A stretch of DNA of 64,000 nt from positions 1 to 64,000 of IMG/VR virus record IMGVR_UViG_3300007512_001108; one strand, 5' to 3'. Source of the stretch: a virus. This document shows, piece after piece, positions 33,191-60,753 of the stretch; the stretch's first letter is position 1, and the number at the start of each line of letters is the position of its first letter. A model generated the notes under the pieces. It saw only the letters and a list, made by a program, of their open reading frames with translations. It was not told the origin of the DNA and did not search any database. Position numbers and translations under genes: made by a program.

Positions 33191-34651
33191 TTAGGAGTTC
33201 AAACCGTGAAGGTTATCTACTCTAAAGATACGGTAGTATTGGTTGTTTCGGATTGCACCCTGAGTGTGTGGGTCAGAGTCATTTACGAATGGGTTGTTTA
33301 CCATTCCGTAACGAGTTTTAAACCCGATTTTTGGTTGGAAAGTGTTTTCCCCAACGGCACGAACCATTTGTAGTGGAACATATGGACAGTAGAACATACC
33401 AGCATCATACGGGCTAGTTCCACGATATCCTACACATACAAAGTCTTTTGCAAGTGTGGAAATACCAGTTCCTGAATATGGGTCAACATAAACTTTAATC
33501 TTACCACCACCAACTGTACCGACAAAAGTGTTACCTGTGTCATCTACATTTGCGACTGCTTGGTCACCACCAGAAAGTTGCATCCAACCACTCATTGCAA
33601 GAGCGGAAGCAACATCTGCGGAACAAAGGATAAAGTTACCTTTTCCTCTACGAGTTTCTTTTGCAATAGTATTGCATTCTCGTTCGATTTGGAATTGAAG
33701 ACCACGGAATCGTTCAGCACTCCATCGACCATCTGAATCTTGGTCTAGGTCATAAATACCACCAAGTGCGGTTGCGGATGTTGAACCTGCAGCGGGTGCG
33801 GCAGAGAAACCATCGTTAGCACCACGACCTGCGTAGTATAGGTCTTGCTGTTGGCAACCCAACTTAGCATTGATGTAGATTGTACGAACTACTTCTCGGT
33901 TAATTTCAGCAAGAATTTCGTTGCTAAGAATGTTAGCAAGTTCTGTTTCTGCATCCAAACCGTGGACTGCTTTCAAGTCCTGTGCGAGTTCAGTTGTATA
34001 TTCTGCTTTCAACGCACGGGTTTTAGCAGCGACTGCTGTTCTTTCGATGCTGAATGCCATTTGTTGGAAACTTGATGCGTTCAAGTTTTCAGCGGCTGAT
34101 GTTGACATTGCTGGGTTTACACCGTAATCAGCACCAACTGTACCACCACCTGTACCAACTGCACCTAATGTAATACCTTCGGAGAATAGTGGGTCACCAC
34201 CGCCTCGGTTATTACCTGTACCTGTTGCTGCCCAACCACCGTGATTACCTGCTGAAGCACCACCGAATGATGTTCGTGCTTCGTTGTATAGTGCTTCGTC
34301 ATATGGTTGACCATCATACTTAGCCTTCATTGCAAAGATAAGTCCTGTAGGACCTGTCATTGGTTGAACACCACATACATCGTATGCGATTAGGTTAGGC
34401 ATTGCTCGTCTAACAAGTGAGATAAGAATTGGGTCGTATCCCTGCATGTTTGAGTTTGAGTTATTTGTAGCGAGTCCAAGTCCACCACCAACTGCGTTGC
34501 TGACTTCGTTAATTGCTACTTCTTGATTTTCCAATAAAATTGCAGTAACTCTCTTCTTATAAGTATCTTCAATCTTTGGCATATCGTTATGCTCAATGAT
34601 TGGCGACCACTTTTCTTGAAGTTGTTCTGCAGCGACTAAAGTAGGGTCCAT
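33191..34651 (-). CDS. 23: Major capsid protein gp23
   Basis: LVRRAMPNLIAYDVCGVQPMTGPTGLIFAM, ELAQDLKAVHGLDAE and FQPKIGFKTRYG. Confidence 0.99.
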   Translation of the reverse strand: MDPTLVAAEQLQEKWSPIIEHNDMPKIEDTYKKRVTAILLENQEVAINEVSNAVGGGLGLATNNSNSNMQGYDPILISLVRRAMPNLIAYDVCGVQPMTGPTGLIFAMKAKYDGQPYDEALYNEARTSFGGASAGNHGGWAATGTGNNRGGGDPLFSEGITLGAVGTGGGTVGADYGVNPAMSTSAAENLNASSFQQMAFSIERTAVAAKTRALKAEYTTELAQDLKAVHGLDAETELANILSNEILAEINREVVRTIYINAKLGCQQQDLYYAGRGANDGFSAAPAAGSTSATALGGIYDLDQDSDGRWSAERFRGLQFQIERECNTIAKETRRGKGNFILCSADVASALAMSGWMQLSGGDQAVANVDDTGNTFVGTVGGGKIKVYVDPYSGTGISTLAKDFVCVGYRGTSPYDAGMFYCPYVPLQMVRAVGENTFQPKIGFKTRYGMVNNPFVNDSDPHTQGAIRNNQYYRIFRVDNLHGLNS

Positions 34652-34723
34652 TGCATTTCTCCTCTGTTTGTTAAATTCTAACTTTACTACTTGTTATAGT
34701 TTAATTAAAAACTGTTTGCGACT

Positions 34724-39999: not shown

Positions 40000-42051
40000 T
40001 TATCCACCAACTTCACTAAAATCTACACCTGTTTTTGTTGCAATGAAATTCAACTGAATATAGTTGATTGACCTTGCTGGCTTAATGTAAATATCTCCAA
40101 CAAATTCGTTTCTATCTATTACTTCACCAGTGTTATTGGTTTCGTCACACACAACCTTGAAGTCGTAAATACCTCTTCGTGACATAATTGTACGAAGGAA
40201 GGGTATTACCATATTTCTAAATTGTGCCCTTGTGAACTCATCATTAAATTCAAAGAGTAGATATTTTGAAGCAGTTGCAATTGCTTTTTCAAGAACAATA
40301 AAGAGTCGTCTTACATTGATTCTATCGAATGCACTTGGTTTTGCTTGCATCGTCTTATCTCCAAACAATACTGTACCTTCGCCGGGGAAGGAAACTACTG
40401 AATTGACTTCTGATTTGTAGAGTTCATCACGGTGTGCTTTTCGTGGTTCGAATGCTAACTTAACAACTCCACGAATTTGACCCCTATTGAATCCTGCGGG
40501 TGAGAACCACGCTTCTTGTTCTGTTTCTGTTCTTGCACAAAGTCCTGCAATATCACCGTTAAGTGGTACATATCGGAGAACATCATTGTAACGGTCAAGC
40601 ATTACCTTGAATCCACTATCGAGTACTGCATATGAACTGCTCTTGTTTAGAGTATTGTTTCTCCAATCTCTAACAGTTGTTGCGGCTACACCTGCTGTTT
40701 GGTTCTGAACTAATCCTGCGGGGTCGCCAGAAGACTTAATGGGTGAAAGGAATGCAATGCAATCCTTACGCTTGTCACACATATCAATGATTATTTTTTG
40801 TACGGTTGCGTCAGATGCTCCACCCAAGATGAGAGAAACATCTACTGATTCAGCATCTTCAAACTCTAAGAATGAAGTTACAAGAGCGGCATTGGCGAGG
40901 TCATTTCCTCCCTGTGTATAGTCGTCTGCACTAACACCACCAGATAATCCCTGTAAACTCACAGCATTTCCTACGGGAGCAGTGAAGTTACCTGGCGCAC
41001 CTCCAGAAAATCCACCCATATTTCGAGTAATTTCGGGGAATGTTGCTGTAATGTCTCCAGTACCAACACCCCCAATTGTGGCTGCGGCCCATATGTAACG
41101 AGACCTATCATTGATTACATCTTTATAGTAGTTTGGACTTCCATCGAAACCTCTTGCATCTGTTGCTTTTGATACACCTTCGAAGACTTCTAGAACTTCT
41201 CCTGCGTTTCCTGTCCATGTACCATCACCGTCAATGACTGCGATGTTCATTTCATCGTTTGTACCACCCGCAGCCGCACATTGGGCACTTGTTGCAGGTG
41301 TTGTGTTAAATACCCTTGCATATCTACTTTCGACTTCGAATGTTGTTCCGATTGCTCTTGCAGAGTAGAGACCTGGTGAGAATTTCAGTTCATTGCCGGG
41401 AGTGGAAGGATTTCCGCCCATTGAAACCCCAGATAGTGATTCTGTGACAGTATGAACATCTCCGTTGGAGAAAATAATTCTGTCTCCCTTAAAGAAGTCA
41501 ATATGTCCATTTCCTGACCCCACTGCGGCAGCACTACTAAACCCACCAGAGACTGAAGTTTCACCAAGAGCGAGGGCCGCTGAAAGACCAAGACATTGAT
41601 TATGTCCTGAACCACCACCTGTTCTACCGTTGTCGTCAAAAACAACTACACGAAGAGAATTGCCGGGTGCGCCTGGATACTTAGCAACAAATTCTGCCGC
41701 TCGGAGAGCATGGGCACCTGTTGCGGCATCAAATTGCTTTCTGTTCTTTATAATACCGTCTGCACCCGATGTGTTTGCATTTTTTGCTTTTGTACCCACT
41801 GAACGAACTACCTGTAGGTTATTTCCGTAACCCAAGAAGTTTGCGGCGGTGAACCACCAGTTATATGTTGCATCGTTTGGGTCACCAAATACTTGACGAA
41901 GATTGTTTTCGCTATCAACTAGAACTCTCTCATCAACTGGTCCCCACTGAAAACCACCTGCCATTCCTGCATTTGTTGTTGCAACTGCGGGAACAATTGT
42001 TGTCAAATCTCTTTCTGTGACATTTACTCCTGGACTAACTTGAAATCCCAT
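40000..42051 (-). CDS. 18: Contractile tail sheath gp18
   Basis: SPGVNVTERD, WFSPAGFNRG, FDRINVRRLF and IKPARSINYI. Confidence 0.98.
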   Translation of the reverse strand: MGFQVSPGVNVTERDLTTIVPAVATTNAGMAGGFQWGPVDERVLVDSENNLRQVFGDPNDATYNWWFTAANFLGYGNNLQVVRSVGTKAKNANTSGADGIIKNRKQFDAATGAHALRAAEFVAKYPGAPGNSLRVVVFDDNGRTGGGSGHNQCLGLSAALALGETSVSGGFSSAAAVGSGNGHIDFFKGDRIIFSNGDVHTVTESLSGVSMGGNPSTPGNELKFSPGLYSARAIGTTFEVESRYARVFNTTPATSAQCAAAGGTNDEMNIAVIDGDGTWTGNAGEVLEVFEGVSKATDARGFDGSPNYYKDVINDRSRYIWAAATIGGVGTGDITATFPEITRNMGGFSGGAPGNFTAPVGNAVSLQGLSGGVSADDYTQGGNDLANAALVTSFLEFEDAESVDVSLILGGASDATVQKIIIDMCDKRKDCIAFLSPIKSSGDPAGLVQNQTAGVAATTVRDWRNNTLNKSSSYAVLDSGFKVMLDRYNDVLRYVPLNGDIAGLCARTETEQEAWFSPAGFNRGQIRGVVKLAFEPRKAHRDELYKSEVNSVVSFPGEGTVLFGDKTMQAKPSAFDRINVRRLFIVLEKAIATASKYLLFEFNDEFTRAQFRNMVIPFLRTIMSRRGIYDFKVVCDETNNTGEVIDRNEFVGDIYIKPARSINYIQLNFIATKTGVDFSEVGG

Positions 42052-44253: not shown

Positions 44254-45132
44254 CTATATTGTTGCTCCTAGTATATCAATGTATGGTGCGCCGCATATTC
44301 CACCTGCATCACCACTACCAAAGATGTAAACATTTGAATCTGCTGAGTATCCAGTAACTCTATCGGATGATGCACCAGAAGGACCAGTTACAGTTATATC
44401 AACTCTAGATAATGCACCTGTACCACCTTCGAATGTTGAACCAGTAGGACCAAAGATATAATCTACACCACCAGAACCACCGTAATTGAAAAATACTGAT
44501 TTTGTTTTGAGTATGTTTCCAGAAGTTCTTCCTTCTCCGTAGATATTTGTCTTTGCTGTAAAGTTTAAAGTCCATGTTATATTTCTTCTTGAATCAAAAT
44601 CTCCTTCATAATCCTCTTCGGAATTTACTCCACTAAGAACAATAGGAATATCTTGTTTTTGGTTTAATTCATTTATATTAATTGTTATATTAAACTCTGG
44701 AGTAAAGTATGGAAGTACTTGTTCTATAAATTGTAATCCGTCATCTGTGTTTCTTACCAGACAATAAACGGAGAAATCTACATTATATGGAACTTCTGAA
44801 TAATTATATTTTCTCTGCCAGTTATCCCCCGAAACACCCATAACTTTTCTTTGCATCGTGTTTCTTTTTCTACCAGAATCAAAATTAATTCCCGTAATTT
44901 CAAAACCCAATCTTGGTAATGTCATTTCAACTTTTGTTTCATCAGAAAGTGAACTTGGTTGATTAATTCTAGCAAGAAATTTTTCTTTTGGTCCATACGA
45001 CAATGGTAAGCGAATATATTCTTTTATTGTTCCATTACTATTATATCGTGCAATACGAATATCATTAAATAACGAACCAAACGATATTACTAACTTCCGC
45101 AAAGAACTATGATAAAAATGAGAACCAAACAT
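44254..45132 (-). CDS. 15: Tail sheath stabiliser gp15
   Basis: FGSLFNDI, PLSYGPKEKFL and QFIEQVLPYFTP; has a Gly/Thr-rich C-terminal extension. Confidence 0.95.
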   Translation of the reverse strand: MFGSHFYHSSLRKLVISFGSLFNDIRIARYNSNGTIKEYIRLPLSYGPKEKFLARINQPSSLSDETKVEMTLPRLGFEITGINFDSGRKRNTMQRKVMGVSGDNWQRKYNYSEVPYNVDFSVYCLVRNTDDGLQFIEQVLPYFTPEFNITININELNQKQDIPIVLSGVNSEEDYEGDFDSRRNITWTLNFTAKTNIYGEGRTSGNILKTKSVFFNYGGSGGVDYIFGPTGSTFEGGTGALSRVDITVTGPSGASSDRVTGYSADSNVYIFGSGDAGGICGAPYIDILGATI

Positions 45133-46070: not shown

Positions 46071-46083
46071 TTATTAGTCCTAA

Positions 46084-47236: not shown

Positions 47237-49096
47237 TTATTTACCACCGCCAGATTCTTGGGCTATTCCAGAACCTGGGTCAAATTTAGAACCACTCGGT
47301 ACACCAGTTCCACTTTCAAATCCTGAAACTTTACCTTCATCAATTCCACTTGCAGTTAGGTGTATTTCGGAAATCTGTGTATATGATTGACCATCAGCAG
47401 TACCTGCTGAATCTACTTCACATTCTGCGAGAAGAACATTTTCTGTTAGATTATTTCTGAATGTCCAAACATCTTGATATAGTGCATAAATATGACCACC
47501 AGAAAATCCTACACAATTTCCCAAACAATCTTGAAGGATAAAGTTTCCTCCAGTACCAGCAGTTCCTCCTAATGTTTCTAGATAAGAAACATGTTCGGAA
47601 AGTCTTTGAACCGTAATGTCATTTGGAGATAAACAAAATCCAGTTGTATGTGTTCCGTGGAAACTAGGTGCGCCGTGACCAAGACTACCGTGAGGTCCGA
47701 AAAGATTTGGGAAATCTCCACTGTTTGCACTACTTCCACTTAGACCAACCAATCCCATATATTCTTTGCGGGATTGTCTAAACTGTGCCTGCTTTGTTGA
47801 TAACTTTTGTGTATCAGACATAAGAGTACCACCTGTACAGGATACTTGATAAACTCCAGCACCATCAAATCCTTCAACATATCCATTCTCATAATCAAAT
47901 CCACCAGTAGCATTTCCAGTCAAAATAATATCTCTGACACCTAATACTTTATTCGTTCCGTCCCAATATGTTACATTTGCTTTTAATCTTTCATAATTAT
48001 CAACAGAGAATAATGCACAACCACTTGGTCCATTAAATCTCATCAGTGCAAGTGTGGATTGGTTATCCATAGTTGCTTGAATTCCAGCAGTAACATAGGT
48101 TGCTCCAGAGAATCCTCTACAAACCGTACCACCCGATGGTCCCATTTGTAGATGGAAGTCATCAATAAATCCACTAAATGCCAATGCACCACTTTGACCT
48201 GCACCAATAGAAAGTGGTTGGTCGGTACGAAGCAATTCATTTATCACTCCTGAACTAATTCCAGTTTCATTTCTGGTATTATCATAATAAGGAATGACTT
48301 CAGAAACATTACTACCATACCATCTACTCTTATAAATGATTGCAACATGATGCCATTTGTTTATCACTGGAACTCCAGCAGTAACAGTTATAGAATGTGC
48401 CCAAGCAGTCGGAGTATCTCCCATATTATTAAAATCAAATTTTAATGAAGTGCTACCATTGTCATAATATAGTTTCCAAGAATTTCCTGTTCCACCTGCG
48501 GCACTACTTCCGTGCATTGCTAAAATTTTATCAGCAGATGGTGTAGCAGTAAGGTAAAAATACATTTGTAATAAAACATCACCACTATATCCACCACTAA
48601 CTCCTGCACCCGATGCACCAGAACCACCACCAATATGTCCACCTGGTCCTGCAAGTGTTAAGCCAGGAATATCATGTAGGAGAAGAACACCACCAGTTGT
48701 TCCAGAGTCAAGACCCTTGAATTTGACAGATGATGTTCCAAATTTCTTTATTGCACGGTCATAGACAGGTTTTGTTGAATTACCTCTATTTCTTGTTTCT
48801 ACTGTTGTTACATTTTGATATACTATTTCGTTCCAACCATATTTTCCACAACCAGTAATACCGGCAGTTAGTCCTCCAGTACAACCTGTTCCCATACTAC
48901 CTGTTTGCATGTGTATTTTTTGTTCGATTCTTGGGTCTGTTCTTTTCTCATTGAATGTTGGAGGATTACCCAAAGTGGATTCTGGAACTACGACAACAGA
49001 TTGACCAGCAACCAATATATCTTCTGTAGATATTCTTTCGTCTAATATATTGACTACTTTTCCGTTTGAATCTAAAATTACATTTTTATTTGCCAT
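47237..49096 (-). CDS. LamG/concanavalin-like domain tail fibre or virion protein
   Basis: KKFGTSSV.F...NKWHHVAI...LSIG...FSGFIDDF...TLALMRFNG. Confidence 0.7.
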   Translation of the reverse strand: MANKNVILDSNGKVVNILDERISTEDILVAGQSVVVVPESTLGNPPTFNEKRTDPRIEQKIHMQTGSMGTGCTGGLTAGITGCGKYGWNEIVYQNVTTVETRNRGNSTKPVYDRAIKKFGTSSVKFKGLDSGTTGGVLLLHDIPGLTLAGPGGHIGGGSGASGAGVSGGYSGDVLLQMYFYLTATPSADKILAMHGSSAAGGTGNSWKLYYDNGSTSLKFDFNNMGDTPTAWAHSITVTAGVPVINKWHHVAIIYKSRWYGSNVSEVIPYYDNTRNETGISSGVINELLRTDQPLSIGAGQSGALAFSGFIDDFHLQMGPSGGTVCRGFSGATYVTAGIQATMDNQSTLALMRFNGPSGCALFSVDNYERLKANVTYWDGTNKVLGVRDIILTGNATGGFDYENGYVEGFDGAGVYQVSCTGGTLMSDTQKLSTKQAQFRQSRKEYMGLVGLSGSSANSGDFPNLFGPHGSLGHGAPSFHGTHTTGFCLSPNDITVQRLSEHVSYLETLGGTAGTGGNFILQDCLGNCVGFSGGHIYALYQDVWTFRNNLTENVLLAECEVDSAGTADGQSYTQISEIHLTASGIDEGKVSGFESGTGVPSGSKFDPGSGIAQESGGGK

Positions 49097-49121: not shown

Positions 49122-51878
49122 TTAAAACCCACTTACATGGGAGTTGCTGTGGTTTTCGAGAAGTATATTCATAAATCTGGTGCTTTCTGTTAAATTAGTG
49201 CCATCATGAAGGTCTTCATTGTGGATGGTCCAACCATCCGTCCCTCCCTCGTTAGCGTTGACTGTAATCCAAGGTGATGAGAAAGAGTGAGATGAATTGT
49301 TTGTAACAGAAAATACATTTTGGATGTGTCGAGTACGACCTTCAATCCAATGAACAAATGGAGTATATCCCAAACTATCCCAATTCACATTCCAACCATA
49401 TGTGACATTTTCTGCAATGGAATTTCTTGCTTGTAGTATTCCACCATATGAAGCGTCGAACCCACTAGATGACATATTCATTGCTTTACTATCTACTGCT
49501 TCGATTTCTCCCCACTGAGTCCGATATCCCATCAATGCATTATGAGCAAGACATCTGCTAACATGCACATGAGAGTTTCGATAAGAAGAAAAACATGCAT
49601 GACCAAAATTTCCCGAAAGAGATTGGGCCGCCTGAATAGAACTAGAAGAAGATGCATTGAAACCATTTCCAAATGCACTGTTACTTGATGTGTTGAAATC
49701 CAAACTTCCTTCAGAGGGGTGAGTATCCGCTGCTATTGTAGAGGTACTATCCTTGGATTCTATTCCTAATGTTAATCCTTGTGCGTTGCAGTCATATACT
49801 AAATCACCCATATCGGTATCATATTGAATTCTCCATTTGCATAAATGGTCATAAAGAACCAAATTTGCATAGCCTGGTTGACCCGAATTTGGCGTCCAGT
49901 TCCTTACAATTCCTACTGTTTCTCCGACATGTCCGTCTTGGTTGGTATCAACCAATGCAACAACATCACCCGATTTAAAACTTGAATCTCTATATCCTGC
50001 TATCCAATTATCATTTCCTTCTGTCCAATTGTTGTTTAACATTAAATTAACTACTGGACAACCACCGAATCCTGCAATCGACCTTCTGGATTCTAATGAT
50101 GAATTATAATTGGCATTATTGCATACTCTTTCAACACCAGTAACAACACTCCTGTCTGCTAGACCTCTGCTTCCTGCATTAATATTAATACCATATTCAC
50201 AATTACTTATAACAATATCATTGAGATTCGCTTCAGATTTTTCTGTAACTTCTACACCCATGTTGAATCCATTAATACCGACATTACTTATTGTGATATC
50301 CGTACCGTATGGTTTTCTTGTTCTATATCTTGAATATCTTGTTTCGGATGCACTTCCACCTGTTTTTCCTAAATTGTAAGATAGAGAACCATTGTTACTT
50401 ATACGGATTCCAGAATGTAACGACCTATTCTTTCCATCTTCATTTATAAAATCACCAGATGTATTTGCAATACCTCCTGATAATCCATTATGGTGTTTAT
50501 TAAATTGTTGCCATTTTCCTTCTAGAACGAGGTCTTGAATAAATCCAAAATCTCCACCATCTATTTCAATTCCACCTTTCTCTGCATCTGTAAATTCAAA
50601 TATAGTTCTAACATGCGTTAGTTCTAATCTGTTTAGACTCATGTGGTAATTTTCACTTGGTCGCATATCAAGCATTTTTAATTGCTTATCCGCATGAGTA
50701 GTTTCACCAAATGAATAAAAGTCTTCTGTCGGTACTACAATTGTACCATCCGTAGGGTCGGTAGTCCAACCTTCTGCGGTATTTCCGAATCTTGTTGGAT
50801 AAGTTCCTGTTGGTAAGAAGTCATTTAATTGGATGCAGTTTATTGGAGGGAATGGACCACTATAGTAATCACCTTGACCGTGATGTGGTGGGTGTATACT
50901 ACCTCCATCGACATCTCCGTGTGCTGAAGGAATATCCCATTCGAGCCACTCAGCACTTTCAGCATAATCACCAGCAGCGTAACCACCAAACCAAAGTGGT
51001 CGGGTGCCATCAATATCTTCGGAAACCTTCGAAGTATATGAGGATGAGGCAAAGTCAAACATAGTAGGATAATTATAATATTTACAAATATAATTTACTC
51101 CACCAAGTCCGTTGACGGTATCTTCCTCAATGTTTGAACTAATTATATGCGCTCCGAGAAGTGCTACTCTTCGTGTCGATTGTTTATTTTTGAAACTGGA
51201 CGATTCGGTATTTGCAACTCCAGTGGCTGCAACCTGTCCATCTGCTCCCCAATCTTCGTGAACAGTATCATAATTATCTTTATGTGCAAAGGTTACATCT
51301 CGTACAAGAACATAATCACCCGATACTCCATTTTCTACACCTATTCCTTTTTTTCCTGATGCGTCACTGGGGTCTATTTTATTTCCGACTGCGGCTGATT
51401 CCCAATCTATTGGATTCAAATGAACTCCTGCTTCATAGAATCTACAAGCAGATGTTCCGTGAAGAGTATTCAGGGTGGATGTTGCCGCACCATCTGCGGG
51501 TGTTGCTGTACCGTCCGCACCAAGATTTGAATGTGAACTTCTCCACCTCGAACACTTTGCAAGGATATAATCTTTTGTTTCTTCTCCACGAATTCCAATT
51601 CTTGCACCTTGCGGGTGTCGTACTTCTATTGGTTTATTAAAAGTATATCTTCCTGCCGCACATTTAATAGTTGCAAAACCATTTTCTGTAATGAAATGAT
51701 TTTGAAGATAGAACATTGCACGATGCGGAGATTTAAAAGGTTTTGCGAGCGTTCCTTTTCCTGTAGTATCATTACCTGCTGTAAGACTAACATATACAGT
51801 AAAGTTGGGGTCGTCTATGATACCAACTGTACTATCGGAAATTGATGTTCCTGATGGACTAAAATATTCTGTTGCCAT
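49122..51878 (-). CDS. Tailspike-like protein with right-handed beta-helix repeats
   Basis: N-terminal YVS...GND..G.GT..KPFK; repeated ISNCEYGI / GFNASSSSSIQA / GFDASYGGILQA coils. Confidence 0.6.
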   Translation of the reverse strand: MATEYFSPSGTSISDSTVGIIDDPNFTVYVSLTAGNDTTGKGTLAKPFKSPHRAMFYLQNHFITENGFATIKCAAGRYTFNKPIEVRHPQGARIGIRGEETKDYILAKCSRWRSSHSNLGADGTATPADGAATSTLNTLHGTSACRFYEAGVHLNPIDWESAAVGNKIDPSDASGKKGIGVENGVSGDYVLVRDVTFAHKDNYDTVHEDWGADGQVAATGVANTESSSFKNKQSTRRVALLGAHIISSNIEEDTVNGLGGVNYICKYYNYPTMFDFASSSYTSKVSEDIDGTRPLWFGGYAAGDYAESAEWLEWDIPSAHGDVDGGSIHPPHHGQGDYYSGPFPPINCIQLNDFLPTGTYPTRFGNTAEGWTTDPTDGTIVVPTEDFYSFGETTHADKQLKMLDMRPSENYHMSLNRLELTHVRTIFEFTDAEKGGIEIDGGDFGFIQDLVLEGKWQQFNKHHNGLSGGIANTSGDFINEDGKNRSLHSGIRISNNGSLSYNLGKTGGSASETRYSRYRTRKPYGTDITISNVGINGFNMGVEVTEKSEANLNDIVISNCEYGININAGSRGLADRSVVTGVERVCNNANYNSSLESRRSIAGFGGCPVVNLMLNNNWTEGNDNWIAGYRDSSFKSGDVVALVDTNQDGHVGETVGIVRNWTPNSGQPGYANLVLYDHLCKWRIQYDTDMGDLVYDCNAQGLTLGIESKDSTSTIAADTHPSEGSLDFNTSSNSAFGNGFNASSSSSIQAAQSLSGNFGHACFSSYRNSHVHVSRCLAHNALMGYRTQWGEIEAVDSKAMNMSSSGFDASYGGILQARNSIAENVTYGWNVNWDSLGYTPFVHWIEGRTRHIQNVFSVTNNSSHSFSSPWITVNANEGGTDGWTIHNEDLHDGTNLTESTRFMNILLENHSNSHVSGF

Positions 51879-51910
51879 TTATAAGTTTCCTCTTATAGTA
51901 TATAGTCGTA

Positions 51911-53128
51911 TTAGTTTGTATCTACCGTTAATTCTGCATTGCTTGTATAATGAAAGAAATGCCAACCAGTCGCATATACAGAGGCCATATGGAATCCATG
52001 TTGACCAATTCCCGTTGCGTAAATCACCGCGTCGGTGGTTTCATTACTACCCTTTCCAATGACACCTCTCGAACTCCATATTTCAATAGTTGGTTCTTCT
52101 TTTCTTTTTGAAACTCTGAACTCAACTTTCGCAGATTTTGCAGTCGTGTCGGCATAAGGATGAAACAATTGAATATTTTCTCTTGCATATCCACCAGGGT
52201 CTTCGGTATATGGAACTGTGGATCCCGGTGTAGTATCCAAATTATAACTCTTTTCATAATACCTTTGACACAATGCTATTTCTGTCATAGGATTCGTCTT
52301 GTCAAATTCTGTAGACCTGCTTCCCTGTTCTAATTGTATTTGTGAAAAACTAATGTTTCCCAAGGCTGCCGCTTCGGATGGTCCACCCAATTCCATTGAA
52401 GCACCGTGTACACCGTTTGAATGTAATACTAGTTGTACTTGCAATGCATCATCTCCAGAAGTTCCAACTGCTGGTTGTCCTTCTACACTTGGAACATTGA
52501 ATGATGTCTTATATTGCCTCCAAGTATTATCTAATGTAAATCCTGTATTTCCAGTACTTCCTTTTATTAATGATGGAGTATCGCCGGCAGTTCTCCCTGC
52601 AAAACATTGTTTGAGAACAGGTGCGACTCTTTGGTTTGAGATATCACTTTTTGCCCAGAAGGAAAGTATACATGTTTTACCTTCTAATGTTTGTACATCA
52701 TCAATATCTTGAACGAGTGCAAGGTATGTACCGTTTGTTGTCGCACCTGCACCAGTGAATCCTCCGTAACTGGCAAACGCTGTTGCTGCCCCGTCCACAA
52801 CATGACTACCCATAGCATCTACTGTGTTTCCAACATAAATATTCAAATACCATTTGCTTGCTCGGTCTGCTCCAGAAGGATAACCCAAAGGCATTAAACC
52901 ACGGAATATAGAGAGAGGTGGAGCGGTAACACCATTTACTGCTTGTGAATAAACTCTCCATCTGTCTGCAACAAAAGAGTTTTGAAGACAAGTTGTTGAA
53001 GCCTTACCAGTAACACCAACACTAGCAGTAACACCGCGTTGCCATATATTGAAGTCACCATTGATGAGTTCATTTCTATTGTCTTGGACTCCTATTGGTC
53101 CGTGGAGAGTTAATGCACTATTTGCCAT
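51911..53128 (-). CDS. Tail fibre/receptor-binding protein with CBM-like jelly-roll domain
   Basis: NELINGDFNIWQRG...ADRW...LSFWAKS...QIQLEQG...ALCQRYYEKSY. Confidence 0.7.
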   Translation of the reverse strand: MANSALTLHGPIGVQDNRNELINGDFNIWQRGVTASVGVTGKASTTCLQNSFVADRWRVYSQAVNGVTAPPLSIFRGLMPLGYPSGADRASKWYLNIYVGNTVDAMGSHVVDGAATAFASYGGFTGAGATTNGTYLALVQDIDDVQTLEGKTCILSFWAKSDISNQRVAPVLKQCFAGRTAGDTPSLIKGSTGNTGFTLDNTWRQYKTSFNVPSVEGQPAVGTSGDDALQVQLVLHSNGVHGASMELGGPSEAAALGNISFSQIQLEQGSRSTEFDKTNPMTEIALCQRYYEKSYNLDTTPGSTVPYTEDPGGYARENIQLFHPYADTTAKSAKVEFRVSKRKEEPTIEIWSSRGVIGKGSNETTDAVIYATGIGQHGFHMASVYATGWHFFHYTSNAELTVDTN

Positions 53129-53141
53129 TGTAATTAATCCT

Positions 53142-56100
53142 TTATAACCTTACAAGTACTACACTAAAGAAGTATGAAACTGGGTCATTTGAACTACCTC
53201 TTCTTGGTTTAAATGTTAGAGTGGTTGTTGATTTAGTAGGTCCTGCAACGAAATACATATCGTTATCTGCATCTGCGGCTGGGTTTGCAGTAATCATCGG
53301 TACAAAATTAGCAGTACCACAATTATGTGTAATCGTTATTGTTCCAGAAGAAAGAGCAATTGCTGATATTCCTCCATTTTTAAATTCATTATCTAACGAT
53401 GATGCATCAGCATCACCATCTACGGTTAGTGTAAAGTGACACGCTCCGACTATTCCTTGTCTTCCCCAAACTCCTACGCCTGTATTGTTTTTGTTAAGAA
53501 GAACATCACCACTATTACCTGTGCTTCCTGTAGAGTCTACGACTGCGAGTCCGCCACCACCCGAAACAGGAAGTTCTGCTCCACCAGCAGTGACACCGAT
53601 TTGAACTATACCATTACTGTGAATAATCATTGCGGATGTATTTCCACCAGAGTGTCCTACAAAGAAATCTACAGTTCCGCCACCTGCACCTGTATGTCTA
53701 AACTCTGCATGATTATTTAAAGTTATTCCCATAAACAATCCTGCGACAGCATCAAAGTTTGAACCGCCACCACCATCTACATCTGTTGTAGTACCAATTT
53801 GAATGTGACTCGCATTTTCTTTGTATAGTTGTAAGAGAGATTCTTTGTTTGCTTCTCCACCAGTGCCACTGTAGAATAGAGAATGACCCGCAGAAACTCC
53901 AATTCCACCACCAGTAGTTGTACCGACATTTACAGTAAAGTTGCTGTCGATACCACCAGATTTACCAAATGCAATTTCACCAGTTGTGTTTACTATTGCA
54001 AATGTATTTCCACCTGCGGATAAATGAAGTTGGTCACTTCCACCAATCCAACCGATTCTTGATTTTTCAGAACCCGCTTCCATTAATGAAAGGTATGAAT
54101 CTTTTGTGTTTGCGGCATCGAGTGCAATATATGAAGCAAGTGCTGATGACTTCAAAGAAACCCAAGCGGCTGCCGCAGTCAAACCTGCAATGAGTGCGTT
54201 TTGCATGTTGCTTCCTTCAACCGCACCAAGATATAAAGAGTCAGCAGTAACTGCTCCACGGAATATACCACCACCACCAACTTCTAATGTTGCACCGAAA
54301 GCCGCATTGGTGCCACCAGTTGCAACTCCAACATTTTTATCAAAACTAATACCTGTTGCATCAGTACCTGTAAGGAAGTTTGTAGAAGATGGGAATGCTG
54401 TCCATATTGCAGTTGTAATACCTGTTCCATTTTCGTCCTTGAGCATAAGTATATCACCAGAGTTACCACCAGTGACAGGGAAGTTATATCCACCGTACTC
54501 ATTACCTGTTATTCCAAGTTCACTAGCATATATTCCGAATGTACCACCTGCACCATTTTCATGATGAGTATAAATATCACCACTTGCTCTAATAGTACCA
54601 GAAACATCTAGAGATGCACCAACAGCAAATCCACCGCCTATTGCTAAACCTTGTTGTGTAAGTCTATGTTTTTCTTTTGGAAGGTCAGTACCTCCACCAC
54701 CTCCCCATAGGAAGGAAATTCCACCACTACCCGCACCACCAGTTGGAGCAGAGTTCCATATTACTGTCATATCACCAGAGTGTCCAAAGTGAGAACCTGT
54801 TGAACCTGTCTGTCCTACACCACCACCTTGGAAGAATGCATATGAAGCATTTCCTGCTGTTCCTAGAACCATTAAAGTGTCTTGTAAATCAAGAGTTAAT
54901 CCTCCAGTATAACCGAGTGAAAGACCCAAATATACTTTACCATCTGTACTAAACCTCATTGCTTCTTGTGTAGAACCATCTGTTCCTTGTGAAGTGTGAA
55001 TTACAACATCTTCATTATCTTTTGAACCTATTCCCTGAATAACAGGTGAGAATTTTTCATATTCTGCATCTGTAGAATTATAACGAACCATTTCGTCATT
55101 TGCAGGGTCACCGTCATTAACATTGCTCAACCCTTCCATAGAAACTGTTAAGTCAATACCATCAATGAGTGATGCTCTTGCTTCGGAAGAAATTCTAATA
55201 ATGTAATGTGTTACAAGATATGGTTGAAGGTTGTTGTGTGGTTGGTCATTTCCAAAAGTCGATAACCCCGAAACCAAGTCGTCTGGTACATTGGCTTTCA
55301 GTGCATGTCCACTTTCCACCGCGGAATCTGTATCTACAAACGATTCTGGTGGGATGTAAAGGTTAAGAGAACCACCGAATGTAAATTGGTCCGAGCCCCT
55401 TTGAGCATGATGAGTTATATCTTGGTTGTTCCCGGATGCGGGGCCACCGAGTTTGTCTGGGTCGCTGTCAACAAAGTGGAAGTTGTTCATCTCTTGTGTC
55501 ACTGTAAATTGGCTATAATCTATCCCACTATTGAAATGATTAATTGCGGGTTGGTCTATAACATGATTGTGGTCATTGATGTCTAGTTCTGAATAATTAA
55601 CTGATACATCACCGTGATTATGTGATGGAATCTCGGCTTCACTAAGTGTATGGGTTCTTTCACCACCATACTGTCCTCTTTCGAAATAATCATCTACTCC
55701 ACCAGTTTCTCCTTCTCCCATCGGAATTCTCGAACGAAGGTCTGGTTTCTTTACAGAGTGAACACTTACACTTTCAATAGAATGAGTAGACGATCCTTCG
55801 GCTACAGTAACTACACCATCTCCATCGCTGGATGTAGTTTCGAATTGTGCTTTTTTATTTGTTATTTCTGTTATGATTTTACCAGTAGTGGAATCGTGTG
55901 TGATATTATCTACTATCATTTCCTTACTGTTATTATCCCAACTAATTATGACAGCATCTGCTTGCGTTCCATCGTCAAATGTTTGCTTAATATCTTCACC
56001 AACAAGACTTGAAGTATTGTTATATGTTGATGGCATTTTAAATTTTTGCCAAGAACCATATCTCCAACTTACTGCTGTATAATAATCTGCATGTCTGGTT

Positions 56101-56663
56101 GCATCAAGTGTACTACCATCACAAAGTGACCATTGTGCAGGAATACCAGAAGTATTTCCTGCATATGCTTGAATTGCACCTACTGGCATTAAACCGTTAA
56201 GACTTACTGTTGCTTCACCACCAATAACAGTACCGAGGTAATTCATCACGACACCTCTTTGTGCGCCACCCGAAAGTTTTCCTCTTCTGGTTAAAACTGG
56301 TTTAATAACATGTCCACCTACTGTTGGTGCGGTTGAACTTACATGACCTGCTGAAATTCCAGAAAGGAAATAACATTCATCAGCAGTTGTTCCTGTGTCT
56401 GGGAAATTCGATATATCTATTTCACCTTGATATACAATAGTAAAGTTATTTGCATCTGCAACTTTTTCGATTATACCAGCAACTTCTGCTTCTTTTGGAG
56501 ATGTGGCATATGCTAATGTAAATCCACCATTACCGCTTGATGCAGTGGGGTCAAACCGAACAACACTACCAGCAGTAAATCCATGTGAAGTCTGCTCAAT
56601 ATTATTTCTAATAGATTTACCATCTAGGACGCCTGTCACCAATTTTAATGCACTTGTTACCAT
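53142..56663 (-). CDS. Long tail fibre protein with tail-collar domain
   Basis: PVGAIQAYAG...WSLCDG...PDLRSRIPMG...GGERTHTLSEAEIPSHNH...HNNLQPYLV.YII. Confidence 0.8.
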   Translation of the reverse strand: MVTSALKLVTGVLDGKSIRNNIEQTSHGFTAGSVVRFDPTASSGNGGFTLAYATSPKEAEVAGIIEKVADANNFTIVYQGEIDISNFPDTGTTADECYFLSGISAGHVSSTAPTVGGHVIKPVLTRRGKLSGGAQRGVVMNYLGTVIGGEATVSLNGLMPVGAIQAYAGNTSGIPAQWSLCDGSTLDATRHADYYTAVSWRYGSWQKFKMPSTYNNTSSLVGEDIKQTFDDGTQADAVIISWDNNSKEMIVDNITHDSTTGKIITEITNKKAQFETTSSDGDGVVTVAEGSSTHSIESVSVHSVKKPDLRSRIPMGEGETGGVDDYFERGQYGGERTHTLSEAEIPSHNHGDVSVNYSELDINDHNHVIDQPAINHFNSGIDYSQFTVTQEMNNFHFVDSDPDKLGGPASGNNQDITHHAQRGSDQFTFGGSLNLYIPPESFVDTDSAVESGHALKANVPDDLVSGLSTFGNDQPHNNLQPYLVTHYIIRISSEARASLIDGIDLTVSMEGLSNVNDGDPANDEMVRYNSTDAEYEKFSPVIQGIGSKDNEDVVIHTSQGTDGSTQEAMRFSTDGKVYLGLSLGYTGGLTLDLQDTLMVLGTAGNASYAFFQGGGVGQTGSTGSHFGHSGDMTVIWNSAPTGGAGSGGISFLWGGGGGTDLPKEKHRLTQQGLAIGGGFAVGASLDVSGTIRASGDIYTHHENGAGGTFGIYASELGITGNEYGGYNFPVTGGNSGDILMLKDENGTGITTAIWTAFPSSTNFLTGTDATGISFDKNVGVATGGTNAAFGATLEVGGGGIFRGAVTADSLYLGAVEGSNMQNALIAGLTAAAAWVSLKSSALASYIALDAANTKDSYLSLMEAGSEKSRIGWIGGSDQLHLSAGGNTFAIVNTTGEIAFGKSGGIDSNFTVNVGTTTGGGIGVSAGHSLFYSGTGGEANKESLLQLYKENASHIQIGTTTDVDGGGGSNFDAVAGLFMGITLNNHAEFRHTGAGGGTVDFFVGHSGGNTSAMIIHSNGIVQIGVTAGGAELPVSGGGGLAVVDSTGSTGNSGDVLLNKNNTGVGVWGRQGIVGACHFTLTVDGDADASSLDNEFKNGGISAIALSSGTITITHNCGTANFVPMITANPAADADNDMYFVAGPTKSTTTLTFKPRRGSSNDPVSYFFSVVLVRL

Positions 56664-56682
56664 TTATTCTTTATCTCCGATA

Positions 56683-56690
56683 TATTTATA
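56683..56690 (-). promoter_or_regulatory. Late promoter ahead of the 1173 aa fibre gene
   Basis: TATAAATA followed by a GGAG SD. Confidence 0.65.
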
Positions 56691-59600
56691 TCTCTGCATC
56701 CGCTGTCCAATGCCAAATCCAGTCTTCGTCTGTTACACTGTTACCGTCTGGGTTTGACCACATTGTTGCCGAACCATTAGAATTACCTGACTGCAACATT
56801 CCATATCCATTTTTAGTTATTCTGCCTTTTATAACTCTTATATAAGTTGCGCCATTGATTACTGTACCGTCTGGATATTCTGTATTCCAATCATCGTCAC
56901 TTTCAATACCATTAATTTTGTCTACAGTTCCTTCTTTTGAGTATACTTCTACAGTAGGTGGACATCTCATTTCAACTTTGAAGTCGGTATTTCCTTGTAA
57001 ACCAGAAGAGATAGTACTATCGAATCTTCGTACAAATCCACCGATATCGTGTAACACTTCCGTACCTGCAATAGTTTGAGGTTCATATGTTTTTTGATAA
57101 TATCTTTGACATCGTTTAAGTTCATCTTCTGGAGTTCTTAAATCGAATTCTGTTCTTGATGCACCTCTTTCAAATTGTACTTGTGCAATATCAATCTCAC
57201 CATTCCAACTTCTTGCTTTTGAATCAGTACCAGAAGCATATTCGTCATAACTTCCGTGAATTGGGCGAATACCTAATCCAATGAATCCTTGTCCTGGAAT
57301 TACAGCAGCGACATTAGCGGTTGCTGTTGTTGCACCCTGACAACCCCAATCTTCTACTGCTTGATTTAATTGACTGTTTGCTAAATGATTTCCTGCACTC
57401 ACTCCTACAATTGCAGGAACATCAAATGTGTATGAATACTTTGTCCAACTATCATTCAAATCAAAGTGTGGACTTCGAAGTGGTTCGTACATTCTCCAGT
57501 TAGCACCAACACCACCTTCACCGGCTGCTCTTACAGAAGAAGAGGATGCGTAATCTCCAGTTCCTGAAGCATATCCACGAAGTTCTGCTCTCACATATCC
57601 AAGTGTTGCTTTAGTTCCTGCACTCCTTCTTGCCCAGAATGAAACTGTTGCTTTTTCTGCGTGTATACTGTCCACACCTTCTATTCTTTGTTCGATTGCA
57701 GGACCTGGTATTGTACCATCATAAGTGGTTACATTATTTGTTAATTTTAAATAATATTTTGCTGGTTTTGATTGACTTCTTGAAAGTACATCATCTACTT
57801 TTGCAAAGTCAAATTCATGTCTTGACAGACCCCCGCGAGTAGCAGTACCTCTCCAATTATAATGGTTATACATTCTCCATCTATCTGCTAAATGATTTTG
57901 TGGGACTTCAATCCTTTGGTTGATAACGGGGTGTCCTCCACCAAGAAAAGTAGAATCCCACTCAAACCAATCTGCACTCTTTCCACCAGTTGTTATTCCT
58001 TGAAGTCTTTGCCAATAATCAAAATTGCCATTAATTAATAAGTTTCTTCCTGCATCTACAACACATCCTGCACCACCACCGAATTCTTTTACGGAATGAA
58101 CTGTTGCTTCTGTAATATATCCAGATACTGCAACTCTTACATCAGCAGAAGTAGATTCTGCCCAATCTGAACTTACAGATACTTTAGGAAGAGTAACAGT
58201 TCCAACATCTCCTGTACCGATTGGAACTATTGTTTCACTGACGGATGATGGAATTCCTTTACTTAATGGATATACTCTACCATCTGCTGAAGTATATTCA
58301 AGGTGTCCTATACTTTGTGCCTGTGTAGCAATGAAAGACCATGAATCCCGAATGCTATCAGTGGAGTTGTTTGTCGAAGACCCCGCCCAAACCCACACCT
58401 TGGTCGGAATTTCTGCCAAGGATGAATCTTTTGTCAAGTTGGCCGAAGTACCAAGGCCAACTGCTTCACTTATCTTGAAACCCCACCTAAGGGTCGTGGT
58501 GTCTACGGTGTTTCCGTCATACGCGTCAAAATTAGAATTGAGGGTACTCGGTACAAATTCAATTGGAAGGCCTGGTGTGAATCCATAACTGTAAGCGGCG
58601 CATTCAGTACTTGGGGCTGCTAAATCGATGCAAGTCCAAGCCGCGTTGAAATGTCCATCCAAGGGGTCCGTTGTATCCAGCAATGCAGCGTCCCAGATAC
58701 TCTCTCCCATATTACATGTCTCATGACCAACGGAATGTGCTGGTGAGATATGAGCGCCAGATGCAACCTTTACAGCACCAACTTGGCTCGACTCACCCAG
58801 AGTTAAACTACCTTCACTCCAAGTTTTTAGAATAAGAGAAGTTGCACCTGTTGTGATACCGAGTACACTATGTACATCTATTTCGTTTTCTGTTGTCAAA
58901 GATATTGCAGAAGTGTTTGCATATCCTCCCACACCAGTTATTGCATCTTTTATATTGTCTGAAAATAGTACAACATTAGATGCAGTAATACCTGAAGTAA
59001 GACCACTTCCTCCTCCTCCACCACCTCCTCCTGCACATCCTGCACCACTACCAATAACTTCACCCTTATAGTTTACAAGAATTAATTCTGTTGTGGAAAT
59101 TGCAACTGCCCACGGTTTCTTTACATGTCCAGTTGTCTGTGGTGGGTATGTCACCAAACTGTCGCCAGAATTTCCCATTCCCCCTCTACCTTCTGGTGCA
59201 GTGTTTGCAGAAAGGAAATATACTTGTCCTATATCTAGAGGAACTAGAGCAGAATTATCTGCAACCGATACTTTACCATTAAGTGCCATATAAAATTTAT
59301 TTGGGTCACCTGCGACATTAACATCACCTATAATACCGATTACTTCTGCTTCTTCTTCGCTGTTTGCTTGTCCCCTTCTCCATACACCATTAGTATATGT
59401 GGTTGCATCATCAACAGTTCCTGTAGAACCTGCTGTTCCTGACCATCCATAATACTCTGATGGTTCAAACCTTACTAAGTCACCAACAACAAAGTCATTT
59501 ACTTGGTTAATTAAAATTCTATTAGATACTTGTGCAGTAATATCATCTGCTTCGTTTGGAATAAGACTTCCACGATAATTTACTATTACACCTCTATCTC

Positions 59601-60753
59601 CTGCATTTCCTAATGCAGAAATATTATCTAAAGCAACAAGAAGAGGTTTAGCAACATTTCCTGCATCTTGTGGTGCAGACTCTCTTAACTTTCCACCACT
59701 TGCATAATCTAAGAAGTAACAACTTCCTGGATTTAATGTTAATCCTGTTGTAGTAGCACTTGTAAAATCTCCTACTATTTCTCCGTGATATGCAACATCG
59801 ATTGTAATTCCCTGTATACCCGTTACAAGACCTACCGTTTCTGCTCCTGCTTCACTATTTGCTATACCAAATGTCCATCCGACTGCACTGTCATATCTGA
59901 CTGCCATACCAAAAGAAAATCCGTGATTGGTTGGAGCAGTAACTCTTCTTTTAACTGCTCCGTTTATAATATCCGTATATGCATTACTTGCACCATAATG
60001 AGCAAATTGAATATGGTCAAAAGAATTCCCTGCGGTATTCTGTGTCATTAGTTTAATGTCACCATAATTTTGTGTGGCACCAGTGACACCACTTGATACG
60101 AGTGGTGCTACCATAGTAGCACCTCTTCCTTTGGTGAACATCAATCCTTCAGAATCACCATCAATTCTATTTGTTTCTATTCTAAATGAATTGTCTAGTG
60201 GATAAACCCAAGCACCTGTTGTTAATCCAACATGTGGACCTTCTACCCACCACATACCAATTACACCACCGCCAGCAGTATTACCTACAGTAGCACCTGC
60301 TTGTGTTGGTTTCCATAAAAGATTTGCATTATTTCCATCAGAACGAAGAATTTCTAAACCACCACCCCCTTGTGTGGTAATATATGAATCCGCTGCACCA
60401 CTACCACCACCAGAAGCACCTGCTGTACCTAAAGATGCACCAGTACCACCGATAGAAATTATATAATCATCTATGGTAAGTTTCTTTGCATTTATGATTG
60501 TATATTCACTATTAAATGAAACTGGTCCTGAGAAAGTAACACCCCTCGAAACTTCACCAGAATGTTCGACAACCATTTCACCATCGGTTTTCATTCCAAC
60601 AGAGATACCATCTCCACTCTTTCCAGTATATACTTTCATACGATTCAATTTATTAATAATCGAATCGTTACTTATATTTCTCCACTCATTGAAAGTATCA
60701 CCTAAAGTGATTTGTGGTATTTGATAATTGGTGCTATGTGGTCCTGTTGCCAT
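56686..60753 (-). CDS. Large multidomain tail fibre/virion protein
   Basis: DTFNEWR N-terminus, two copies of an HGF..G..VR module, and a C-terminal NLLINGNFDYWQR...CQRYYQK domain. Confidence 0.7.
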   Translation of the reverse strand: MATGPHSTNYQIPQITLGDTFNEWRNISNDSIINKLNRMKVYTGKSGDGISVGMKTDGEMVVEHSGEVSRGVTFSGPVSFNSEYTIINAKKLTIDDYIISIGGTGASLGTAGASGGGSGAADSYITTQGGGGLEILRSDGNNANLLWKPTQAGATVGNTAGGGVIGMWWVEGPHVGLTTGAWVYPLDNSFRIETNRIDGDSEGLMFTKGRGATMVAPLVSSGVTGATQNYGDIKLMTQNTAGNSFDHIQFAHYGASNAYTDIINGAVKRRVTAPTNHGFSFGMAVRYDSAVGWTFGIANSEAGAETVGLVTGIQGITIDVAYHGEIVGDFTSATTTGLTLNPGSCYFLDYASGGKLRESAPQDAGNVAKPLLVALDNISALGNAGDRGVIVNYRGSLIPNEADDITAQVSNRILINQVNDFVVGDLVRFEPSEYYGWSGTAGSTGTVDDATTYTNGVWRRGQANSEEEAEVIGIIGDVNVAGDPNKFYMALNGKVSVADNSALVPLDIGQVYFLSANTAPEGRGGMGNSGDSLVTYPPQTTGHVKKPWAVAISTTELILVNYKGEVIGSGAGCAGGGGGGGGSGLTSGITASNVVLFSDNIKDAITGVGGYANTSAISLTTENEIDVHSVLGITTGATSLILKTWSEGSLTLGESSQVGAVKVASGAHISPAHSVGHETCNMGESIWDAALLDTTDPLDGHFNAAWTCIDLAAPSTECAAYSYGFTPGLPIEFVPSTLNSNFDAYDGNTVDTTTLRWGFKISEAVGLGTSANLTKDSSLAEIPTKVWVWAGSSTNNSTDSIRDSWSFIATQAQSIGHLEYTSADGRVYPLSKGIPSSVSETIVPIGTGDVGTVTLPKVSVSSDWAESTSADVRVAVSGYITEATVHSVKEFGGGAGCVVDAGRNLLINGNFDYWQRLQGITTGGKSADWFEWDSTFLGGGHPVINQRIEVPQNHLADRWRMYNHYNWRGTATRGGLSRHEFDFAKVDDVLSRSQSKPAKYYLKLTNNVTTYDGTIPGPAIEQRIEGVDSIHAEKATVSFWARRSAGTKATLGYVRAELRGYASGTGDYASSSSVRAAGEGGVGANWRMYEPLRSPHFDLNDSWTKYSYTFDVPAIVGVSAGNHLANSQLNQAVEDWGCQGATTATANVAAVIPGQGFIGLGIRPIHGSYDEYASGTDSKARSWNGEIDIAQVQFERGASRTEFDLRTPEDELKRCQRYYQKTYEPQTIAGTEVLHDIGGFVRRFDSTISSGLQGNTDFKVEMRCPPTVEVYSKEGTVDKINGIESDDDWNTEYPDGTVINGATYIRVIKGRITKNGYGMLQSGNSNGSATMWSNPDGNSVTDEDWIWHWTADAEI

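Follow-up and report, generated by a model that had tools for sequence, protein, structure and literature searches.

An ordered G-x-[ST]-[GA] motif in the outer virion proteins of a marine T4-like phage, and a putative SgtA-like O-glycosyltransferase that may read it

Why do the fibres and neck proteins of a T4-like phage carry the four-residue motif G-x-[ST]-[GA] again and again? This question is raised by a stretch of viral DNA of 64,000 nucleotides (positions 1 to 64,000 of IMG/VR record IMGVR_UViG_3300007512_001108; this whole stretch is called the window below). Its initial annotation had proposed that the motif is the acceptor site for the glycosyltransferases (GTs) of the phage itself, and all 12 of the peptide strings quoted there were found in the genes named. 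The window makes up most of a 74.7-kb viral contig, all of its genes lie on the minus strand, and its source is an uncultured marine T4-like myovirus. At the DNA level its capsid region is nearest (67-72% identity) to those of Synechococcus phage S-SCSM1, the pelagiphages HTVC008M and Mosig, the Methylophilales phage Melnitz and other cyanophages. We describe here the distribution of the motif, together with a gene at 5323-6672 whose predicted product resembles SgtA, a protein O-glycosyltransferase of C. difficile. The positions of the genes are listed in Table 1.

The number of motifs in each protein was compared with that in shuffled sequences. The shuffles were either global or confined to windows of 20, 12 or 10 residues, which keeps the local content of Gly, Ser and Thr; the class-level values given here are those of the 12-residue shuffles. 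The seven fibre and other outer proteins contained 113 sites against 41.6 expected (2.7-fold, z 11.9), and the impression that the motif saturates the fibres was thus borne out. When the 1412-amino-acid (aa) protein and the small immunoglobulin (Ig)-like protein were left out of this class, about 64 sites still stood against about 26. The neck proteins gp13, gp14 and gp15 had 9 sites against 2.1 expected (z 5.0), and this excess was driven by gp14 and by the C-terminal tail of gp15, a tail of 75 residues that holds five of the six sites of the protein. The capsid protein gp23 and the sheath protein gp18 together had 9 sites against 6.0 (p 0.15), which is not significant in this genome. That is, among the core proteins in which the motif had been pointed out, the gp15 tail and gp14 were confirmed, gp18 was confirmed only when it was pooled over the clade described below, and gp23 was not. 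No excess was found in the scaffold, protease, portal, tube and terminase proteins (2 against 2.4; the tube protein gp19 has none), in the enzymes of the sugar cluster (5 against 3.1) or in the replication proteins (3 against 2.6), as had been judged by eye for the portal, terminase, scaffold and replication proteins. The excess in the outer proteins survived the global as well as the local shuffles, and it was therefore not lost when Gly, Ser and Thr content was controlled.

The order of the residues proved to be essential. Among 12 orderings of the residue classes, G-x-[ST]-[GA] (2.8-fold) and the overlapping [GA]-x-[ST]-G alone stood out, and the rest lay between 0.7- and 1.4-fold. Variants changed at one position occurred about as often as expected: 1.11-fold for G.[ST][^GA], 0.95 for [^G].[ST][GA], 0.97 for G.[^ST][GA], 1.02 for A.[ST][GA] and 0.98 for G.[ST]S. 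Gly and Ala at position 4, and Ser and Thr at position 3, were each enriched 2.3- to 3.0-fold. Because the change of any of the three fixed positions removes the excess, the motif is an ordered three-position signal and not a matter of composition. The sites formed 97 runs, namely 85 single, 11 double and 1 triple, and the spacing of 3 between Gly residues was enriched, while the spacing of 6 was not. Since the sites are mostly isolated and have no period-6 signal, the dispersed sites are not parts of collagen or polyglycine helices, and a reading of the motif as a collagen or polyglycine-II helix is ruled out. Beyond the six triplets at the N-terminus of the 1412-aa protein, the window contained no uninterrupted (G-X-Y)n run of helix length.

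Relatives of the window were then compared. They were collected from IMG/VR via gp13, which gave 80 gp13-linked relatives. Eight contigs (G000-G005, G009 and G010), whose gp23 is 55-62% identical to that of the window, form the enriched clade set; the motif excess in them was 2.4- to 3.4-fold. The outgroups were T4, HTVC008M, Melnitz, Mosig, P-TIM68, three large genomes (G006-G008) whose gp23 is about 51% identical to that of the window, and G021. The Gly-rich open reading frames (ORFs) of the complete genomes of HTVC008M, Melnitz, Mosig and P-TIM68 showed no excess (0.84- to 1.30-fold), and neither did G006-G008 (0.8- to 1.45-fold); the structural proteins of T4 had 25 sites, about as many as expected. 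An equal enrichment in relatives, which would speak against the acceptor-site proposal, was thus found neither in these phages nor in G021, all of which lack the enzyme described below. It is also ruled out that the motif is a universal property of phage fibres, since T4 and the four cultured marine relatives are without the excess.

The same contrast was obtained when orthologous proteins were pooled. The sites of gp18 numbered 42 against 16.3 expected in the eight clade members and 16 against 17.1 in seven outgroups. For gp15 the values were 17 against 3.6 in the clade and 1 against 2.8 outside it, and for gp14 they were 18 against 4.9 and 7 against 4.4. In gp23 the excess was weak both ways (1.77-fold in the clade, 1.41-fold outside), and the tube, terminase, scaffold and protease proteins were at or below expectation in the clade and in the outgroups alike. 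Many of the enriched proteins of G002 had no BLAST similarity to the fibres of the window, which means that the excess recurs in different proteins.

Which gene accompanies the motif? The gene at 5323-6672 (the enzyme gene) was found in every enriched genome with a readable interval between regA and dut, that is, in G000, G001 and G004, and in none of the outgroup genomes examined; the contigs of G002, G003 and G005 end before the position expected for it. G004 possesses the enzyme and almost no other sugar genes, yet it is enriched 2.6-fold. G006-G008, in contrast, possess Gmd, Fcl, DegT, other transferases and homologues of two cluster genes of unknown function, and they have neither the enzyme nor the excess. 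This comparison indicates that the excess follows the enzyme and not the sugar genes generally, and a link between the motif and sugar clusters as such is ruled out. The sugar genes of G006-G008 form a different island (G006:C1:37487-52869, G007:C1:129985-142650 and G008:C1:129556-159033; Gmd, Fcl, DegT, GT2 and homologues of the window genes at 14338-15734), which sits elsewhere than the regA-dut slot of the clade. Thirteen loci have regA beside dut without the enzyme. The only long one among them, G021, has a gp23 of the outgroup type (48% identity) and 9 sites against 8.5 expected, which is no excess.

The enzyme itself was analyzed by profile comparison. Pfam places a GT2 domain (PF00535) at residues 16-113 and families of the tetratricopeptide repeat (TPR) at 213-260, and over positions 201-308 the profile of the enzyme family matched consensus TPR proteins. 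When the PDB was searched with this profile (E up to 0.001), the glycosyltransferase matches were all protein or peptide glycosyltransferases, namely GmaR (4e-16, over the N-terminal 110 residues only), SunS (8e-9) and 7msk (ThuS-like; 1e-6), and no lipid- or polymer-directed GT2 synthase was among them. The known counterpart, SgtA, is a protein of 358 aa in which four TPRs come after a GT-A domain, and it is encoded immediately upstream of bclA3; in vitro it transfers beta-O-linked N-acetylglucosamine onto Thr, and also Ser, of peptides from the collagen-like region of BclA3, and it accepts the single-site peptides GATG, GPTG and GASG (PMC7157674). We found the C. difficile locus via the back-translated published BclA3 peptide; directly upstream of the collagen gene it has an ORF of 361 aa with GT2 and TPR domains (L290:2037-3122:-). 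This ORF was taken as sgtA because of its length (361 vs 358 aa), its domains and its position upstream of the collagen gene that contains the published peptide. Aligned with hhalign, the phage family profile and this ORF matched over 310 columns and both domains (99.6%, E 3.8e-24), with shared N-terminal and DADD motifs, and the alignment ran through the TPR part to residue 332. Residues D105, A106, D107 and D108 of the phage enzyme, which are invariant among 30 homologues, align to LDADD of the C. difficile ORF.

The enzyme family is common in marine metagenomes, with 1766 homologues of near full length and 2399 cluster representatives at E <1e-30. Bacterial multidomain proteins of 1000-1900 aa (for example in Bradyrhizobium and Mesorhizobium; P0141-P0284 and L189-L211) embed the GT-A and TPR module at 35-46% identity. 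The Bradyrhizobium homologue genes lie at least 150 kb from flagellin genes.

The position of the enzyme gene was conserved. In G001, G004 and 82 IMG/VR loci the order is regA, 0-14 variable genes, the enzyme gene, then usually the small Ig-like protein and hypervariable Gly-rich proteins (the cassette), and finally dut; in the window the enzyme gene is followed by 4819-5274 and then by 561-4799. The minimal order of regA, enzyme and dut occurs in G004 and several other contigs. The enzyme gene is the conserved element of the locus, and it is accompanied by anything from 0 to 14 other sugar genes. We counted the sites before and after the enzyme gene in 44 related contigs with a complete interval from the enzyme gene to dut. 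The small Ig-like gene was present in 30 of the 44 and other cassette ORFs followed the enzyme gene in 27. The small Ig-like proteins had 123 sites against 39.4 expected and the cassette proteins 570 against 227.5, and the genes upstream of the enzyme gene had 94 against 82. Single cassette proteins reached 66 sites against 13, or 88 against 15.

The interval between the enzyme gene and dut (561-5274 in the window; L169-L174 and L212-L287) is hypervariable: it holds from zero to several Gly-rich genes with ORFs of 100-2500 aa, and it differs between close relatives. Some cassette proteins are nearly pure (G-x-T)n arrays, and such long arrays are confined to some relatives. In fibres of relatives (L034:6680-9970 and L013:5619-9899), either G-x-T triplets extend for hundreds of residues behind an N-terminal Ig-like domain, or several blocks of GST repeats separate globular domains. 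The 1412-aa protein, which fills the cassette slot in the window and has the short collagen-like N-terminus of six triplets, contains large repeated modules, in which some 30 residues near position 635 return almost unchanged near position 975, and it had no BLAST homologue among the 80 gp13-linked relatives. In the small Ig-like protein, an alignment of 7 homologues showed a conserved loop of the form G-[VI]-T-[GAS]. The initial annotation had been confined to 33191-60753, and both this densest carrier and the enzyme gene lie outside that region.

The T4-type late-promoter word TATAAATA gives a hint about the time of expression. Of its nine coding-strand copies in the window, eight stand 20-81 nucleotides (nt) ahead of a start codon: gp23, gp22, gp19, gp18 and a fibre gene have one each, and the remaining three belong to groES, regA and DegT-1. 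The total count (12 against 8.4) is not above chance, but the placement is. The copies at 16912-16919, 18573-18580 and 9619-9626 lie 20-41 nt upstream of regA, the GroES-like gene and DegT-1, respectively. In T4, such positions belong to an early or middle operon. From the copy at 9619-9626, DegT-1, GT47a, the Ugd-like gene, the enzyme gene and the cassette could be expressed as late genes, and the placement of the words would fit transcription at late times for the distal sugar genes, for the enzyme gene and for the cassette.

We examined the conservation of single sites in the 619-aa fibre, for which a graded series of orthologues (84-42% identity) was available. Seven sites were kept in 12-14 of the 14 orthologues, with interchange of Ser and Thr and of Gly and Ala, and the x residue of these sites was free (Y/W/F/H or P/V/Q/S). 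In the eight most diverged orthologues, Ser/Thr of the motif was still Ser or Thr in 71% of cases, compared with 49% where Ser/Thr lay elsewhere (p 0.013), Gly of the motif was kept in 78% against 60% (p 0.04), and the identity at x was 42%, below the average of 46%. The orthologues of gp15 fell into two groups, tail-less proteins of about 220 aa with 0-1 sites and proteins of about 275-292 aa with tails, which have 2-8 sites at aligned positions.

AlphaFold2 models of gp15 and of the 619-aa fibre, made with alignments, were of moderate confidence (mean predicted local distance difference test [pLDDT] 70-73). In the model of gp15, tail residues 216-292 had pLDDT values of 46-66 and the sites were at the ends of two short strands. 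In the fibre model, 15 of the 18 sites were in coil beside strands, and four were in a loop with a pLDDT of about 30. The modelled sites were thus outside strands and helices, either in coil that adjoins strands or in Gly-rich loops of low confidence. This is compatible, at the level of predicted models, with the expectation that the motifs are not buried; the models fit exposed and flexible sites, and they suit a structural turn as well as an acceptor site. In gp18, the two clusters of sites correspond in the alignment to the stretches of T4 gp18 at residues of about 143-152 and 335-345, which we take to lie in the two outer domains of the gp18 structure.

Table 1. Position of the genes and signals discussed in the text, with the number of G-x-[ST]-[GA] sites (observed vs expected) where counted
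Feature	Position	Strand	Remarks
dUTPase gene dut	3..530	-	NCBIfam dut at 3e-31; conserved, bounds the insertion of enzyme and cassette on the downstream side
1412-aa modular Gly-rich protein	561..4799	-	46 vs 13.9 (10-residue local shuffles, z 9.1); densest carrier
Small Ig-like protein rich in Gly/Ser/Thr	4819..5274	-	Directly downstream of the enzyme gene; matches phrog_1084
SgtA-like candidate protein O-glycosyltransferase	5323..6672	-	GT-A (GT2), TPR and C-terminal extension; proposed priming enzyme
Variable sugar and GT genes	6674..16432	-	Pfam: Ugd-like, two GT47-like, two DegT aminotransferases, DUF6165, methyltransferase, GT32-like DXD transferase, four unknowns
T4-type late-promoter word TATAAATA	9619..9626	-	20 nt upstream of the DegT-1 start
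NAD-dependent sugar epimerase/dehydratase	16915..17832	-	Pfam PF01370, E 5e-61
GDP-mannose 4,6-dehydratase and Fcl-like epimerase/reductase	19535..21471	-	PF16363, 8e-121; PF01370, 4e-50
gp23 major capsid protein	33191..34651	-	3 vs 2.7, not enriched
gp18 sheath protein	40000..42051	-	6 sites in two clusters; 6 vs 3.3, alone not significant
gp15 tail-sheath stabiliser	44254..45132	-	Pfam T4-gp15_tss over 5-213; 6 vs 1.2
gp14 neck protein	45132..46070	-	3 vs 0.7, p 0.03
619-aa fibre, ConA/LamG-like domain	47237..49096	-	Pfam Laminin_G_3; 18 vs 5.5
918-aa tail protein	49122..51878	-	Weakly enriched, 6 vs 2.9, p ~0.065; weak PHROG tail-family match
405-aa tail fibre	51911..53128	-	phrog_4492 (tail fibre family) at 2e-33; 8 vs 2.1 (z 4.4)
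1173-aa tail/baseplate fibre	53142..56663	-	Pfam Collar; PHROG tail families; 18 vs 8.7 (z 3.5)
1355-aa tail fibre	56686..60753	-	phrog_4492 match; 14 vs 8.3 (z 2.2)

The surroundings of these genes can be summarized as follows. The region 44254-60753 encodes gp15, gp14, the LamG-like fibre, the Collar-domain fibre and members of tail-fibre families (Pfam, PHROGs). A tblastn search with the 1173-aa fibre against GenBank phages gave no match. A structural protein of 996 aa (DUF4815; 60954-63944) adjoins the fibres; it has 0 sites against 1.1 expected and may be an inner or baseplate component. At 5323-21471, the sugar and glycosyltransferase cluster is interleaved with replisome genes, and a Cpn10/GroES-like gene at 18209-18553, kept in G001, lies between the clamp-loader genes gp44 and gp62.

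With modest confidence, we favour the reading that the phage encodes a soluble protein O-glycosyltransferase of the SgtA type, the product of 5323-6672, which prefers G-x-[S/T]-[G/A] as its acceptor context, and that the neighbouring variable enzymes elongate the glycan. The particle would then probably be sugar-coated. Late in infection, the TPR part of the enzyme would engage newly made virion proteins, and the enzyme would transfer the first sugar to the Ser or Thr of the motif in flexible loops and tails flanked by Gly. The variable neighbouring transferases, the methyltransferases and the GDP-sugar enzymes (6674-21471) would extend and decorate this first sugar. The enzyme would act on the tail fibres, on gp14 and gp15, on the outer region of the sheath and on the Gly-rich proteins of the cassette behind its own gene. 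What the analysis shows is an excess of the motif with specificity at three positions, confined to a single clade and to proteins that face outward; it also shows the homology of the enzyme, its domain architecture and the order of the genes. Compared with the initial proposal, the ordered excess and the presence of an SgtA homologue uphold the idea of an acceptor site, but the partner is one specific enzyme instead of GT clusters generally.

Several points weigh against this reading. The association of the enzyme with the motif is perfect, but it amounts to one evolutionary contrast or event, since all carriers form one clade, and we found no genome inside the clade that had lost the enzyme. 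The identity between the phage enzyme and SgtA is only 23%. The peptides tried with SgtA were of the form G-x-T/S-G only, so that the requirement for Gly at -2 and Gly or Ala at +1 was not mapped (PMC7157674). The large bacterial homologues (Bradyrhizobium, 1882 aa) have no obvious protein substrate such as flagellin alongside. In the virion, gp23 is not supported as a carrier. Finally, the positional conservation of the sites is equally expected for a structural turn.

This last point leads to the alternative that survives best, although we consider it rather unlikely. The motif may be a structural idiom, that is, a Gly-flanked Ser/Thr turn, a strand cap or a relic of collagen-like Gly-X-Thr that is favoured in the fibres of this lineage, and the enzyme may act at most on the adjacent collagen-like cassette proteins. 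The location of the sites at strand boundaries in both models agrees with such an idiom, as do the conservation of many positions over 42-84% identity, the enriched Gly-Gly spacing of 3 and the long tandem (G-x-T)n arrays of relatives, which Pfam would call collagen. However, the excess extends across unrelated folds, namely the LamG-like fibre, the other fibres, gp14, the gp15 tail, the outer domains of gp18 and the Ig-like protein. Moreover, the orthologues and the comparable Gly-rich fibres of nine outgroup phages are without it, and only 12 of the 97 runs have two or more triplets, with no enrichment of the spacing of 6, so that a triple helix is not formed.

A second alternative is that the whole cluster of sugar and transferase genes, with 5323-6672 among them, serves to remodel the host surface polysaccharide against superinfection and that the motif of the virion is unrelated to it. 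The glycosyltransferase clusters of pelagimyophages have been published as tools for altering the host surface (PMC7029224), and the GDP-sugar pathways and the GT47- and GT32-like enzymes of the cluster are typical of O-antigen synthesis. Nevertheless, we regard this explanation as quite improbable. The anchor enzyme groups with soluble protein and peptide glycosyltransferases and not with polysaccharide synthases; it stays constant in a locus where the number of other sugar genes ranges from 0 to 14, and motif-dense proteins of structural appearance usually follow it. Late-promoter words stand ahead of the distal sugar genes, and the excess of the motif itself would be left unexplained. As for an artefact of low complexity rich in Gly, Ser and Thr or of internal repeats, the fibres do contain 11-17% Gly and the 1412-aa protein does have internal repeats, but the excess survives the shuffles at all three window sizes, the orderings other than the overlapping one stay at 0.7- to 1.4-fold and the one-position variants stay near 1-fold, which rules this explanation out for practical purposes.

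The favoured reading, glycosylation of the motif by the SgtA-like enzyme, can be compared with known systems. The nearest is that of SgtA and the exosporium collagen-like glycoprotein BclA3. In both enzymes a GT-A domain is followed by TPRs and the homology extends over the full length, and in both C. difficile and the phage the enzyme gene is directly upstream of a gene rich in G-x-T. The two systems differ in that the phage enzyme is longer by about 90 residues at its C-terminus, in that the phage sites are mostly isolated and distributed over many unrelated virion proteins, whereas BclA3 is one long GPT collagen array, and in the setting, which is a phage particle instead of a spore. Judging from these features, the phage system would be a glycosylation of the SgtA/BclA3 kind that a phage has taken over and in which the sites are scattered singly across many proteins of the virion. 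With collagen (G-X-Y)n proteins in general, the phage proteins share the Gly-X-Thr triplet, and relatives carry long arrays of it, but the single triplets that predominate in the window cannot form a triple helix.

SunS, ThuS (PDB 7MSN/7MSP and 7MSK) and Listeria GmaR (PDB 22ao) are likewise GT-A enzymes of the soluble kind, and the residues that they modify in proteins or peptides are Ser, Thr or Cys; SunS is itself encoded by a prophage, and SunS and GmaR carry helical-repeat parts for binding the substrate. Their substrates are different, being a small disulfide-bonded peptide or flagellin, and we know of no G-x-S/T-G rule for these enzymes. To our knowledge, glycosylation of virion proteins has been established among tailed phages for mycobacteriophages only. 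According to PMC12363180, which cites Freeman et al. 2023, glycosyltransferases encoded by the mycobacteriophages Che8, Corndog and Myrna decorate the capsid and tail proteins of the phages themselves; the text consulted describes no short dispersed sequon. These phages belong to an unrelated lineage with an unrelated host, their enzymes include Che8 gp110 and Corndog gp38, and the modified subunits are of the capsid and the tail tube; in the window, gp19 has no site and gp23 is not enriched.

A wider proposal seems to us plausible though somewhat doubtful. It is that a large and abundant aquatic clade of T4-like phages, to which at least 587 IMG/VR contigs belong, covers the entire exterior of its particles (fibres, neck, sheath and hypervariable Gly-rich glycoproteins) with glycans by means of one SgtA-like enzyme that reads a four-residue sequon, and that the variable sugar genes diversify the glycan. 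If this is true, these phages would possess a kind of glycocalyx with a short sequon of its own, and the glycosylation sites could be predicted from the sequence. A short O-glycosylation sequon of the bacterial type, together with a small soluble enzyme, would be testable with peptides and possibly useful for glycoengineering. Such a coat would also change our view of host recognition, of the stickiness and decay of the particles, and of the role of so-called auxiliary sugar genes in abundant ocean phages.

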